Positions 1 through 18,834 of a DNA stretch of 43,814 nucleotides are shown here, one piece after another. The notes under the pieces were generated by a model. The model worked only from the letters and a program-made list of their open reading frames with translations. It was not told the DNA's origin and ran no database searches. The position numbers were made by a program, and so were the translations under genes. The stretch comes from an uncultured Erysipelotrichaceae bacterium (GTDB lineage Bacteria > Bacillota_I > Bacilli_A > RF39 > UBA660), in the NCBI GenBank assembly GCA_902788735.1, contig CADALJ010000006.1, positions 1-43,814 on the forward strand, given 5' to 3'. Position 1 is the stretch's first letter; each line of letters begins with the position of its first letter.

Positions 1-59
1 GATGATTATGTGTTTGACACCAGTTTCTCAATTTTATATGAGCAAGTAATATAGAAATC

Positions 60-88
60 TTGACAAGTATAAAAAAAAAGATTATATT
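60..88 (+). promoter_or_regulatory. sigma-A promoter of glyQS leader
   Basis: TTGACA (60-65), 17 bp spacer, TATATT (83-88). Confidence 0.75.
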
Positions 89-94
89 TAATTC

Positions 95-221
95 ATAAGT
101 GTGATGACGGGTGTGGAAAGCCAAGAGCAGTATAGATTAAAGACGATTCTTCTAGAATAAGTAAGGTGGAACCGCGGAGTTATAACTTCGTCCTTACATA
201 ATTCTAGAAGTTTTTAATTTT
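95..221 (+). ncRNA. Gly T-box riboswitch leader (short, atypical)
   Basis: AAGG-TGGAACC-GCG T-box motif at 163-176; GTAAGG/CCTTAC antiterminator helix; variable base A matches tRNA-Gly discriminator U73; lies upstream of GlyRS. Confidence 0.85.
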
Positions 222-14524: not shown

Positions 14525-14553
14525 TTGTAAAAGAATATAAATAGTGTTATAAT
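14525..14553 (+). promoter_or_regulatory. sigma-A promoter of Phe T-box operon
   Basis: TTGTAA-17 bp-TATAAT with extended TG. Confidence 0.8.
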
Positions 14554-14560
14554 TTATACA

Positions 14561-14772
14561 TCGATGGAGATATAGAAGTAGTAGTAAATGATTTACTTAT
14601 AGAGAGACTATGTGAGGTGGAAATAGTCAGTAATAGTTTATGAATTCGTCTATGGAGTTCTTATTAATAGTAAGCGTGTGACTTTCGTTACAAGTCTAGA
14701 GTGTATAGTAATAACTATAAAGTAAGGTGGTACCGCGAGTAAATCGTCCTTACATTTATAGTTATTTTTTTT
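14561..14772 (+). ncRNA. Phe T-box riboswitch
   Basis: AGTA, AGAGA and GGTGGAA Stem I motifs; GAA-TTC specifier (Phe UUC at 14645-14647); AAGG-TGGTACC-GCG T-box at 14724-14737; upstream of pheST. Confidence 0.92.
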
Positions 14773-14783
14773 GGGGGAATATT

Positions 14784-15407
14784 ATGAAAAGATTTATATT
14801 TGCTTTAGATGATACATTATTAACTAAAAATTATAATTTAGAGAAAGAGTATTTTGAAAGTATTTATGGAAATGATAGTACTAAATTACTTAATGGTCTT
14901 AGTGTATATTTAAATAGTTATGAAAATTCGTATTCAAAATATGATAGAGATAAGTTGTGTAGGTATTTAAATTATGTAAGTGGCTTAAAGTTTACTTTAG
15001 AAATACTAGATGGTTGGAATGAAGTAATAGGTAATCAGCATTGTAAAACAGAAGAAGGAACTATTGAATTATTAGAATATTTAAAAGGTAAAGGATATAG
15101 TCTATCTATTTTAACTAATTGGTTTAGAGAACCTCAAATTAAAAAAATTCAAAATGCTGGTTTAATAGAATATTTTGATGATATATATACAGGAGATGAG
15201 GTACTAAAGCCAAATAAAGAAGCATATATATGTGCGAAAGATCGATTTAGTTTTAATGATTGTGTTGTAATAGGTGATGATCTTAGAAAAGATTATATGG
15301 TGCCTAGAGAATTAAACATGGGTGCAATTCTTTATGATAAGACTGATTTACAAAGAAGTGGCATAGTTAAAGTAAAAAGAATGAATGAAATAATGGAAAA
15401 ATTTTAG
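14784..15407 (+). CDS. HAD-superfamily hydrolase (motif I first Asp replaced by Ala)
   Basis: FIFALDDTL, LTNW, KP, IGDD...D motifs; GGGGGA RBS before ATG 14784. Confidence 0.85.
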   Translation: MKRFIFALDDTLLTKNYNLEKEYFESIYGNDSTKLLNGLSVYLNSYENSYSKYDRDKLCRYLNYVSGLKFTLEILDGWNEVIGNQHCKTEEGTIELLEYLKGKGYSLSILTNWFREPQIKKIQNAGLIEYFDDIYTGDEVLKPNKEAYICAKDRFSFNDCVVIGDDLRKDYMVPRELNMGAILYDKTDLQRSGIVKVKRMNEIMEKF

Positions 15408-15415
15408 GAGGATAT

Positions 15416-16468
15416 ATGGAAAATAAAAAGGTATTAGAAATAAAAGAATTAATGAAAAATGATTTAGTTGATTCTGTTGATATGAATAAATTAAATGATT
15501 TAAAAGTAAAGTATTTAGGTAAAAAAGGTTTGATTACTCTTCTTAATAGTGAGATTAAAAATATTCCTAATGAAGAAAAAAAAGAATTTGGAATGATGGT
15601 AAATGAACTTAGAAATGATTTTAATAATTACTATGAAAATAAAAAACAAGAATTAGAAAGCGCTTTATTAAATGAAAAATTAAGTAAAGAAGCTATTGAT
15701 ATTACTTTACCTAGTAAAAAGATTAAGAGAGGTTCATTAAACCCTATGACTAGAATAACTGAAGAGTTTGAGGATTTATTTGTGTCTATGGGTTATACAG
15801 TATTTGAAGGACCTGAACTTGAAAGTGATGAGAATTGTTTCCAAAAGTTAAATTTACCTAAGGGACATCCAGCAAGAGATGCACAAGATACATTCTATTT
15901 AAAAGATGAAGTAGAAAATTATTTATTAAGAAGTCAAACTTCTACTGCACAAGTTAGAGCAATGGAAGAAAATATTGATAAGGGCCCTATTAGAATAGTT
16001 TGTCCAGGTAAAGTTTATAGAAGAGATGAAGATGCAACTCATTCACATCAATTTATGCAAATAGAGGGATTAGTTATTGATAAAAATATTTCAATGGCTG
16101 ACTTAAAAGGAACTCTTGAAGTAATGATGAAACATGTTTTAGGAGAAAAGACTGAAGTTAGATTTAGACCAAGTTATTTTCCATTTACTGAACCTAGTGT
16201 AGAAGTAGATGTAACATGCTTTAAATGTGGTGGAAAGGGATGTAATCTTTGTAAAGATACAGGTTGGATTGAAGTATTAGGTGCTGGTATGGTACATCCT
16301 GATGTACTTACTATGAGTGGATATGATCCTAATGTATACCAAGGATTTGCATTCGGTACAGGATTAGATAGAATGGCTATGTTTAAGTATGGTATTCCAG
16401 ATATTAGAACTATCTATGGAAATGATTTAAGATTTATTAATCAATTTGATAGAAAGGATGATGAATAA
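15416..16468 (+). CDS. pheS: phenylalanine--tRNA ligase alpha subunit
   Basis: HPARDAQDTF, LLRSQTS, FRPSYFPFTEPS, GFAFG.GLDR. Confidence 0.98.
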   Translation: MENKKVLEIKELMKNDLVDSVDMNKLNDLKVKYLGKKGLITLLNSEIKNIPNEEKKEFGMMVNELRNDFNNYYENKKQELESALLNEKLSKEAIDITLPSKKIKRGSLNPMTRITEEFEDLFVSMGYTVFEGPELESDENCFQKLNLPKGHPARDAQDTFYLKDEVENYLLRSQTSTAQVRAMEENIDKGPIRIVCPGKVYRRDEDATHSHQFMQIEGLVIDKNISMADLKGTLEVMMKHVLGEKTEVRFRPSYFPFTEPSVEVDVTCFKCGGKGCNLCKDTGWIEVLGAGMVHPDVLTMSGYDPNVYQGFAFGTGLDRMAMFKYGIPDIRTIYGNDLRFINQFDRKDDE

Positions 16469-18834
16469 TGTTATTAAGTAAGAAATTTGTATCTGATTAT
16501 ATTGATTTAGATGAAAATTTAAGTATTACTGATATTGCTAATGCAATGACTTCAGTAGGTAATGAATATGATTATGCAGGTAAACTTATTAATTGTACTA
16601 ATTTAATTACTGGTGAAGTTGTAGAATGTGTTGATCATCCTGATAGTGATCATTTACATGTATGTAAAGTTAACATAGGAAGTGAAGTATTAAATATAGT
16701 ATGTGGTGCTCCTAATGTTAGATGTGGATTAAAAGTAGTTGTTGCTTTGCCAGGTGCTGTACTTCCTTTAGGAGAAATCAAAAAGGGTGTAATTCGTGGA
16801 GTAGAATCAAATGGTATGCTTTGTTCTCTTGCAGAATTAGGATTAGATAATAAATTCTTAAAACCTGAAGATAGGGAAGGTATTCATGAATTACCAAGCG
16901 ATACTGAAATTGGTATCGATGGTATTAAAGCCTTAGGATTAGATGATGAAGTAATTGATTTTGAATTAACAAGTAATAGAGGAGATTTATTAAGTGTTAT
17001 AGGTATGGCTTATGAATTAGGGGCAATCTACTCTAAGAAAGTAAAAGATATAGATTTAAAATATAATTCTAATGATGATGATATTAATAATTCGTTTAAA
17101 ATTGATATTCAAACTAAAGATTGTAGTTTATTCTTAGCTAAAAAAGCTATTAATGTAACGATAAAAGAAAGTCCTTTATTTATTAAGAATAGACTTATTG
17201 CATCAGGTATTAGACCTATTAATAATGTAGTAGATATATCAAATTATGTAATGTTAGAAACTGGTCAACCACTTCATTATTATGATGCTGATAGATTAGG
17301 TGATACATTAATAGTTAGAAATGCTACAGATGGAGAAAAACTTGTAACACTTGATTCAGAGGAAAGAGTTTTATCTAGTGATGATATAGTTATTGCAGAT
17401 AAAGAAAAAGCTATTGGACTTGCTGGTGTTATGGGTGGACTTTCTACAGAAGTAGAGGAAAACACTAAAAATATTATTATTGAATCAGCAATCTTTGATT
17501 CTATTAAAATTAGAAAAACTAGTAAGAAGATATTAAGAAGTGAAGCTTCTAATAGATTTGAAAAAGGTTTAGATCCATTAAGAACATATATGGCTATTGA
17601 GAGAAGTTGTGCATTACTTGAAAAGTATGCAGATGCTACAATAGTTGGTGGTATTTGTGAATATAAAGATTTAGTCATTAGTGATACTTCTATTGATATT
17701 ACATTAGCTAAGATTAAGAGTGTACTTGGAATAGAAATATCTAAAGAAGAGGTAATTGATATATTTAATAGATTAGGATTTATTGTTACTGATAATAAAG
17801 AATCATTAAATGTAGTAGTTCCTTCAAGAAGAAGAGATATTAAAATAGTAGAAGATTTAATAGAAGAAATTGGTAGAATTTATGGAATGGATAAAATAGA
17901 AGGAAAACTACCAGTACTTGATACTGTTAAAGGTAAATATGATAAGACTAAGAGAGCTATTAAACATAAACTTGCTGATCTTGGTTTAAATGAAACTATT
18001 AGTTATACATTAATACCTAAAGATGAAGTACATAAATTTACTAAAGATGAATTTACTGAAGTAATGTTAAATGATCCAATGAGTGAAGATAAGAATACTT
18101 TAAGATATAGTTTAATTTATTCATTATTAGAAATATATAAATATAATAAAGATAGAAATAATTCTAATGTATCTATATTTGAAATAGGTAAAGGTTTCTA
18201 TAAAAAAGATAACGAATACTTTGAAGAAAATAAATTATGTGTATTAATGAGTGGTGAATATGAATTAGATATTCATAATGAAAAAGTTGATTTCTATCAC
18301 TTAAAAGGTATTATGGAAGAATTATTATATTTCTTAGGATATGATAATAGATATAGTTTACTAATAAATGATTATATTCCAAATGAATTACATCCAGGTG
18401 TTAGTGCTGCAATTAACGTAAGTGGAGTTAATGTAGGAGTAATTGGTAAACTTCATCCTAACGTAATTAAAGATAATGTATATGTAATGGAAATTAATTT
18501 AGATAAATTGTTAAGCATAAAAACTGGATCTATGAAATATAAAGATTATTCTAAATTCCCAAGTATTTATAAAGATGCAGCGTTTATATTAGATAATAAA
18601 GTTACTAATAAAGAAGTACTTGATACTATTAAGAGAGCTGGAGGAAGATTGTTAAGTTCAGTATCATTATTTGATGTATATGAAAATATTTCTGAAGGTA
18701 AAAAATCTATGGCTTATAAGATGGTATTTACTGATCCTACTAAAACACTTAGTGATGAAGAAGTAATGGAATTATTTAATAAAATAATTGACAAAGTAGT
18801 GTCAAGTTTTAATGCAGAATTAAGAGATAAGTAA
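16468..18834 (+). CDS. pheT: phenylalanine--tRNA ligase beta subunit
   Basis: IVCGAPN, RGVESNGMLCS, NRGDLLS, GQPLH, RFEKG, FDVY. Confidence 0.98.
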   Translation: MLLSKKFVSDYIDLDENLSITDIANAMTSVGNEYDYAGKLINCTNLITGEVVECVDHPDSDHLHVCKVNIGSEVLNIVCGAPNVRCGLKVVVALPGAVLPLGEIKKGVIRGVESNGMLCSLAELGLDNKFLKPEDREGIHELPSDTEIGIDGIKALGLDDEVIDFELTSNRGDLLSVIGMAYELGAIYSKKVKDIDLKYNSNDDDINNSFKIDIQTKDCSLFLAKKAINVTIKESPLFIKNRLIASGIRPINNVVDISNYVMLETGQPLHYYDADRLGDTLIVRNATDGEKLVTLDSEERVLSSDDIVIADKEKAIGLAGVMGGLSTEVEENTKNIIIESAIFDSIKIRKTSKKILRSEASNRFEKGLDPLRTYMAIERSCALLEKYADATIVGGICEYKDLVISDTSIDITLAKIKSVLGIEISKEEVIDIFNRLGFIVTDNKESLNVVVPSRRRDIKIVEDLIEEIGRIYGMDKIEGKLPVLDTVKGKYDKTKRAIKHKLADLGLNETISYTLIPKDEVHKFTKDEFTEVMLNDPMSEDKNTLRYSLIYSLLEIYKYNKDRNNSNVSIFEIGKGFYKKDNEYFEENKLCVLMSGEYELDIHNEKVDFYHLKGIMEELLYFLGYDNRYSLLINDYIPNELHPGVSAAINVSGVNVGVIGKLHPNVIKDNVYVMEINLDKLLSIKTGSMKYKDYSKFPSIYKDAAFILDNKVTNKEVLDTIKRAGGRLLSSVSLFDVYENISEGKKSMAYKMVFTDPTKTLSDEEVMELFNKIIDKVVSSFNAELRDK

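Follow-up and report, generated by a model that had tools for sequence, protein, structure and literature searches.

A T-box leader upstream of pheS and pheT with a proposed Stem III-gated terminator in an uncultured member of the Bacilli

Introduction

Textbook T-box switching, which current reviews describe alike, is a contest between an antiterminator and a terminator that shares its 3′ strands. That Stem III belongs to the tRNA-sensing "discriminator" was not recognised until 2019. The window analysed here, a stretch of 43,814 nucleotides from an uncultured Erysipelotrichaceae bacterium (assembly GCA_902788735.1, contig CADALJ010000006.1), contains a phenylalanine T-box leader in which a 12-nt arm running into the T tract is complementary to Stem III and its flank. 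The locus raises the question of what a terminator of this kind would compete with when the antiterminator itself is left intact, and how the state of the tRNA could reach it.

The Phe leader and its genes

The Phe leader is full length. It scores 109.6 bits against the Rfam covariance model RF00230 (gathering score 93, E 1.7e-23), covers model positions 1-219 of 219 and is the sole above-gathering Rfam match within the window (Table 1). The elements of the discriminator are all present, namely the RRRxG purine string, Stem III, the AA dinucleotide at 14720-21 and the G-U wobble closing A2. The specifier codon was located by the usual rule for such leaders; the genome has one gene for tRNA-Phe(GAA), whose anticodon fits the UUC specifier and whose ACCA end is complementary to the bulge UGGU. 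The leader belongs to the T-box family on every sequence criterion tested. All coordinates given in the original prediction, for Stem III, A1, the bulge, A2, the complementary arms and the T run, agree with the sequence.

Table 1. Positions of the T-box leaders and associated features in the window.
Feature	Position	Strand	Details and basis
Gly T-box leader, same architecture	51..215	+	31.2 bits, E 1.5e-5; match at 51-198
Gly leader helices	outer 149-158 / 201-210; A1 161-166 / 192-197	+	bulge UGGAACC 167-173; T run from 211
Promoter-like TTGTAA-17-TATAAT with TG extension	14525..14553	+	5 nt upstream of leader; consensus match only
T-box leader, Stem I to antiterminator	14558..14754	+	Rfam RF00230
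Specifier codon UUC (Phe)	14645..14647	+	3′ of GAA 14642-44, 5′ of G14648; Rfam alignment and sequence
GAGUG, the 5′-RRRxG purine string preceding Stem III	14699..14703	+	sequence; motif as in PMC7583486
Stem III	14704..14719	+	TATAGT 14704-09, loop AATA, ACTATA 14714-19; fold of 14700-14754 and progressive folding
Outer-helix 5′ arm	14710..14721	+	AATAACTATAAA; Stem III loop, Stem III 3′ arm and conserved AA 14720-21; exact complement of 14755-66
Antiterminator	14722..14753	+	A1 14722-27 / 14748-53 (GTAAGG/CCTTAC); bulge UGGUACC 14728-34; A2 14735-38 / 14744-47 (GCGA/TCGT); wobble G14735-U14747 at A2 base
Outer-helix 3′ arm	14755..14766	+	TTTATAGTTATT; A14754 bulged; folds and duplex energies
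Run of 8 T (U tract)	14765..14772	+	first two T form the last two pairs of the outer helix
Shine-Dalgarno-like GGGGG and ATG	14773..14786	+	GGGGG 14773-77, ATG 14784-86; both unpaired in either fold
HAD-family hydrolase gene, first after leader	14784..15407	+	Pfam HAD_2, E 1.4e-14
pheS and pheT, regulated genes	15416..18834	+	pheS 15416-16468, pheT 16468-18834; Pfam tRNA-synt_2d (E 6e-98), B3_4, tRNA_synthFbeta, FDX-ACB

The upstream neighbour of the leader is frr (Pfam RRF). Promoter-like consensus sites such as the one listed in Table 1 number 7 in the region, against 9.2 expected. The distance from leader to pheS is ~70 nt in many relatives, and ~700 nt with an intervening gene in others and in the window.

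Alternative folds of the Phe leader

The two outer arms, AATAACTATAAA and TTTATAGTTATT, are exact reverse complements over 12 nt. RNAfold predicts that 14700-14772 forms one hairpin, comprising a 12-bp outer helix, the bulged A14754, A1, the 7-nt bulge and A2, with an energy of -19.8 kcal/mol (z = -4.05) that none of 200 shuffles matched. As in an intrinsic terminator, this predicted hairpin ends, at 14766, within the T run. When the RNA is cut at 14754 the remainder (14700-14754) folds instead as Stem III plus antiterminator, at -12.2 kcal/mol. The alternative folds have A1 and A2 in common and differ only in the partner of 14710-21. In the outer helix the AA of the latch is itself paired, A14720 and A14721 with U14756 and U14755. 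Only 1 of its 12 pairs is G-C, and with so AU-rich a stem base termination could be weak.

Folding along transcription, which the original prediction had put forward as a check, gives the expected switch. Stem III plus antiterminator is the best structure until base 14760, and the outer helix wins from 14761, which corresponds to a polymerase positioned on the U tract. The findpath barrier from the first fold to the second, calculated with no tRNA included, is 3.8 kcal/mol. A consensus terminator scanner, which allows loops of 3-8 nt only, returned no match here. In small shares of assembled contigs from sequencing runs, one RNA-library contig spans 14586-14775, but short contigs from DNA-like runs also break at ~14774, and the contig end carries no information on termination.

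The terminator 5′ strand of this leader is not drawn from the 3′ strands of A1 and A2, as it would be on the canonical platform. The duplex between the A2/A1 3′ strands (14735-54) and 14755-72 reaches merely -1.8 kcal/mol, which bears out the original prediction that no canonical terminator follows the arm. It is with Stem III and the linker that the pre-U-tract arm pairs well (-9.5 kcal/mol), and not with the bulge region (-1.0 kcal/mol). A hidden canonical terminator was rejected on the -1.8 kcal/mol pairing and on the presence of the Shine-Dalgarno sequence and ATG within 12 nt of the T run.

The same short spacing bears on translational or mixed control, in which the hairpin, abutting the Shine-Dalgarno sequence, would limit ribosome access and the T run would be incidental in an AT-rich genome. 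GGGGG starts 1 nt past the T run, with the ATG 12 nt further, and the AU-rich helix base would make a modest terminator. Against this, the Shine-Dalgarno sequence and the start codon are unpaired in both folds, with 8 T directly after the hairpin, and what the A1/A2 3′ strands form with the GGGGG region is a weak, discontinuous duplex (-6.8 kcal/mol) downstream of the T run. We regard control at the level of translation, alone or mixed, as quite improbable, and take the hairpin and U tract as a candidate transcriptional element.

A second leader in the window

The Gly leader at the start of the window has the same architecture. Its outer helix, formed by CTTCTAGAAT and ATTCTAGAAG, is unrelated in sequence to that of the Phe leader, and it folds likewise (-24.7 kcal/mol, z = -3.67), so that the original prediction of a Gly copy with a different sequence and preserved pairing stands. 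The gene downstream encodes glycyl-tRNA synthetase, and both tRNA-Gly genes have a UCCA end that fits the UGGA of the Gly leader bulge. Unlike its counterpart in the Phe leader, the AA of the Gly leader is not paired and lies in a small internal loop.

The Gly leader scores 31.2 bits against the gathering score of 93, and 6 of the 11 T-box matches of the genome lie below this curated cut-off; standard annotation would therefore miss them.

Three terminator layouts in one genome

Three layouts are distinguished here: type C, with the terminator on Stem III; canonical; and type B, in which the downstream arm pairs with the T-box bulge. The window genome (~1.0 Mb, 88% complete) has 11 T-box matches, 10 of which are not cut by a contig end. 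By fold, these 10 leaders divide into 3 type C, 2 canonical and 5 type B. The type C leaders are those for Phe and Gly and one preceding a deaminase-like gene, the last assigned by the fold method only, its duplex result being ambiguous.

In type B the bulge, together with the A1 5′ strand (GATGGTA, GGATGGTAC), is the partner of the pre-U-tract arm (e.g. TACCATC, GTACTATCC), and the helix encloses A2; on this predicted pairing the arm would compete directly with the tRNA CCA end. Type B makes up 5 of the 10 leaders in the window genome, 19 of the 119 family leaders and 8 of the 73 Phe leaders (see below). Those of the window genome are L002 (~1648-1725), L006, L007, L009 and L010 and include the hisS and thrS leaders; those of relatives include L088-L093, L096, L100, L107, L112, L115 and L118.

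Several T-boxes of the window genome also precede genes other than those for aminoacyl-tRNA synthetases or with an obvious link to amino acids, at C53:770-976(-), C27:6238-6430, C55:3234-3402(-), C5:21084-21255, C11 and C17 (loci L003, L002, L007, L010, L004 and L008, respectively). Judged by eye only, their products appear to include CMP/dCMP-deaminase-like, HD-domain-like and P-loop kinase-like proteins, one protein of 81 aa and membrane proteins.

Distribution of the layouts

The layouts were counted in near-complete T-box sets from 13 genomes of the family, representing 11 genera and 119 leaders. Two classifiers were used, one that reads from the minimum-energy fold what the pre-U-tract arm pairs with and one that takes the best duplex energy, and a leader was counted only if they agreed. 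The leader search required a T run after A1, which makes the T run a search condition and not a result, and a type C call required an outer helix ending within ~4 nt of that run. A covariance model of the nested hairpin had been tried as a survey tool and was dropped, as, for example, one canonical leader reached 59 bits and true type C leaders 30-48; since its scores did not separate type C from canonical, classification was made from sequence instead.

Type C accounts for 41 of the 119 leaders, canonical for 39 and type B for 19; these classes rest on thermodynamic prediction, and the two methods did not agree on the remaining 20, the duplex classifier being poor for short canonical terminators and giving many ambiguous calls. 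About half of the T-boxes (60/119) are thus non-canonical, either C or B. None of the 13 genomes lacks a type C leader. The original prediction of a lineage-wide variant class holds in so far as the layout is recurrent, being present in all 13 genomes, and its pairing survives sequence change; at 41 of 119 leaders it is not universal within them.

Outside the family, type C was found in 2 of the 9 leaders of genome G024, including that for Phe, in which the helix is wholly different (AGUUUACUCU / GGAGUAAACU). Two other genomes outside the family gave 0 of 6 and 0 of 5. A further 55 genomes, from other families of the class, were surveyed by their top-scoring leaders, and the fold method called none of these type C; 47 were canonical, together with one tandem second copy, and the rest were type B or not placed. 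A draw at the level of the phylum returned the same class and no further families. The sampling thus covers one class, and for Firmicutes such as Bacillus and Clostridia the literature describes canonical terminators.

One locus in these sets, L252 of G175, has two T-box 3′ domains ~145 nt apart (at ~1682 and ~1827), each with a canonical terminator, and looks like a tandem T-box.

Conservation of the pairing

Phe leaders were surveyed at the 80 closest PheS loci in a species-representative collection, 73 of which have a leader; the records are uncultured gut MAGs labelled "Bacilli bacterium", "Tenericutes" or "Coprobacillus sp. CAG:605". Type C was assigned to 36 of these 73 leaders from related species, canonical to 29 and type B to 8. 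An Rfam check of 20 of the 36 type C loci gave 10 at or above the gathering score and 10 full-model matches at 75-91 bits. Within the window's genus, 12 of the 16 pheS loci with a T-box motif are type C, 3 are canonical and 1 is of no clear type. The original prediction would have been undermined had related leaders carried ordinary terminators, and this is in part what is seen, the Phe leaders of sister clades being canonical (29/73) or type B (8/73). Universality is thereby refuted, while the architecture stands.

Three of the genus loci, L039, L040 and L041 (G001, G013 and G018), encode a PheS that is only 38-39% identical to that of the window, compared with 60-64% for the other genus members. 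This divergent PheS lies behind a canonical-terminator T-box in each case and may represent a replaced or second pheS.

On a FastTree phylogeny of PheS (74 rows) the three layout labels need 7 changes, compared with a mean of 29.3 when shuffled, and the C label needs 5, at least 4 of them forced by well-supported branches. The clade of the window's PheS, which was defined by the tree and not by the terminator feature, comprises 14 rows with 99% local support, and all 14 are type C. The helix sequence varies widely inside this clade (AAUAACUAUAAA, UCUAUGAAG, GAUCAUGA, CUCAUGAA, UCUAGAA and others), and the complementarity is kept through the change: cognate arms pair with a mean of -9.4 kcal/mol and non-cognate arms with -4.3, the window's own 5′ arm reaching merely about -0.4 to -3 kcal/mol with the 3′ arms of other clade members. 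The Gly leaders of the genus behave similarly, with type C and compensatory changes in 15 of 17 loci and no motif in the other 2.

In a MAFFT alignment of 22 diverse type C leaders, 79.4% of cells are paired, against 41.6-55.3% when the partners are slid by 1-3 columns, and changes on both sides are seen in 15 of 22 pairs, a number reached by 0 of 500 shuffles. The alignment was not fitted to structure, and MAFFT alignments in which the 3′ arms were out of register through differing bulge lengths were left out of the pair counts. These 22 leaders had been selected for folding as type C, so the pair count shows compensation within the class and not that the class exists. A duplex test on 169 distinct leaders, 65 of them type C, is better evidence that type C is a discrete class. 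Cognate and non-cognate arms differ strongly in type C (-10.0 vs -2.9 kcal/mol), whereas the same two regions give -2.5 vs -2.7 in canonical leaders and -0.9 vs -1.2 in type B. The related genomes in these sets are not independent, and the statistics overstate the support accordingly.

These data also speak against the reading of the inverted repeat as something other than an RNA helix, be it a protein operator, a recombination site or another feature of the DNA, or a chance product of AT-rich sequence. The arms are indeed AT-rich and partly palindromic, as is TTCTAGAA in the Gly leader. Their sequences, however, change freely between leaders and species with complementarity kept, including G-U pairs, which make sense only in RNA; their place is always directly outside A1, with the T run at the end; and shuffling the 12-nt arm gave equally good pairing in only 6 of 5000 trials. 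For just 8 of the 43,734 12-mers of the window is there an exact reverse complement within 3-60 nt downstream. A DNA operator or chance palindrome was rejected on the compensated arm changes with their G-U pairs and on the fixed position outside A1, and we consider it highly improbable. An RNA helix, the extension of A1, remains our reading of the repeat.

Properties of type C leaders

Across 100 distinct type C leaders the outer helix averages 9.7 bp, and the fold that contains it is favoured by 6.7 +/- 2.8 kcal/mol. In 82 of the 100 a hairpin at the Stem III position contributes at least 3 nt of its 3′ arm to the 5′ arm of the outer helix, and AA stands directly 5′ of A1 in 95; 12 have no predicted upstream hairpin that overlaps the 5′ arm. 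Stem III is weaker than in canonical leaders (-2.1 vs -3.3 kcal/mol), and the base of the terminator is richer in AU, with a mean of 1.8 vs 3.1 G-C pairs among the 8 next to the U tract. The median findpath barrier in the family sets, for related genomes and with no tRNA included, is 2.6 kcal/mol for type C (n=43), compared with 6.9 for canonical (n=45) and 6.8 for type B (n=23).

In a few leaders, L307 and L311 (G067 and G057), the complementarity of the pre-U-tract arm goes beyond the Stem III 3′ arm and takes in the loop and 5′ arm as well, giving a still larger enclosing hairpin.

Proposed mechanism

We propose, with a probability of about 0.7, that the Phe leader senses tRNA-Phe and attenuates transcription of the HAD, pheS and pheT genes through a non-canonical platform, a terminator gated by Stem III. 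The 12 nucleotides before the U tract would pair with the Stem III loop, the Stem III 3′ arm and the conserved AA, extending A1 downward and leaving the intact "antiterminator" at the top of a single long terminator hairpin. Its competitor would be Stem III with the flanking purine latch, which makes Stem III the proposed true anti-terminator element.

In the ON state the acceptor end of uncharged tRNA-Phe would pair with the UGGU of the bulge, the Stem III purine string would dock on the tRNA-bulge duplex, and with Stem III held in place the polymerase could pass the U tract. In the OFF state, with tRNA charged or absent, the latch would not be engaged, and the weak 6-bp Stem III could be displaced by low-barrier zippering from the base of A1 as the U tract is transcribed. 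Because the outer helix takes up both the 3′ arm of Stem III and the AA latch, uncharged tRNA is proposed to block the zipper. What the analysis shows is the anatomy, the folds, the fit to tRNA-Phe and a complementarity that survives sequence change; the termination event itself and its gating by tRNA through Stem III we infer, the gating with the help of published structures and biochemistry.

What is known of the discriminator is consistent with such a role. According to PMC7583486, the antiterminator alone shows no appreciable tRNA binding, both Stem III and its purines are required for the discriminator, and it is with uncharged tRNA only that the purine string "latches on". Later work places the function of the stem in its termini and purines.

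The gating step can be questioned while the hairpin is accepted. The outer hairpin and U tract might act as a terminator or pause irrespective of Stem III, with tRNA blocking it by another route or with the leader serving as a leaky constitutive attenuator that responds little to tRNA; the tRNA-bound A1/bulge stack, for example, could sterically prevent the extension of A1 whatever Stem III does. Neither fold disrupts the bulge or A1/A2, so the extended hairpin itself could be the target of tRNA, and the exposure of the tRNA-binding bulge in the OFF fold means that exclusion of tRNA is not obvious. The 12 type C leaders with no overlapping hairpin also favour an ungated terminator. The position of the 5′ arm on the 3′ arm of a Stem III-position hairpin in 82 of 100 leaders does not, nor does the location of the AA latch in or beside the helix in 95. 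Where two helices exclude each other, such mirroring of the Stem III 5′ arm by the terminator arm is what one usually sees, and the conserved full T-box apparatus with its tRNA match speaks against an unregulated attenuator. We consider an ungated terminator unlikely, and prefer gating by Stem III.

We are evenly balanced on a wider proposal, that such leaders constitute a distinct class of T-box platform in which the "antiterminator" is a constitutive part of the terminator and the signal is passed solely via Stem III and its latch by low-barrier exchange. This class would make up about one third of the T-boxes of a large family of small-genome uncultured gut Bacilli. Phe leaders alone would have seen at least four gains or losses of it, and it would coexist with type B, the terminator being an evolutionarily interchangeable module with at least three solutions.

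Implications

In the predicted folds of type C leaders the contest between antiterminator and terminator is absent, and Stem III is the sole competing element. If the proposed mechanism is correct, docking of the Stem III purine latch suffices to carry the regulatory decision, and these leaders would offer a simple system for measuring the latch step, in the Phe leader a 6-bp stem against a 12-bp zipper. For annotation, tools that seek canonical terminators or short-loop hairpins will miss or mislabel leaders of this type.

Comparison with known T-box systems

Published descriptions, in PMC7583486, PMC10907184, PMC7778990, PMC11404447 and PMC13001445 (the latest, a 2026 preprint), build the terminator from the 3′ strands of A1 and A2 or present competing AT/T hairpins. 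A search of the full-text literature, whose scope did not extend to the main comparative-genomics papers and their supplements (e.g. the TBDB predicted terminators), brought up no account of a terminator that uses Stem III in this way. The layout is an apparently new form of a known riboswitch. The same search, which was aimed at the Stem III terminator, brought up no account of type B either.

Type B, found in the same genomes, is also non-canonical and also keeps A2; its arm, however, would compete with the tRNA CCA end and not with Stem III. The stem Sa of Staphylococcus aureus glyS is likewise a lineage-specific departure from the Bacillus terminator/antiterminator layout in the leader of an aminoacyl-tRNA synthetase gene. 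As described in PMC4574755, 42 nt inserted into the antiterminator fold there into stem Sa, a first stem of their own, with a conventional terminator as the second stem, whereas the Phe leader has neither the insertion nor the conventional stem.

The translational, class II T-boxes of the Actinobacteria, such as that of Mycobacterium tuberculosis ileS, resemble the Phe leader in that a discriminator made of Stem III and A1/A2 senses the tRNA 3′ end. They differ in that the Shine-Dalgarno sequence is sequestered and there is no U tract; in the Phe leader a U tract follows the hairpin and the Shine-Dalgarno sequence is free.

The Phe leader shares its parts with the canonical, transcriptional class I T-boxes, exemplified by Bacillus subtilis tyrS and glyQS. 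Both have a specifier in Stem I and the RRRxG-Stem III-AA arrangement; in both, a 7-nt UGGNACC bulge separates A1 from A2, whose base is closed by a G-U wobble, and a U tract and the operon of an aminoacyl-tRNA synthetase follow. In class I, as described in PMC7583486 and PMC10907184, the 3′ strands of A1 and A2 are the 5′ strand of the terminator, and the two structures are mutually exclusive. In the predicted fold of the Phe leader, by contrast, A1 and A2 persist inside the terminator, and the strand that is exchanged is that of Stem III.
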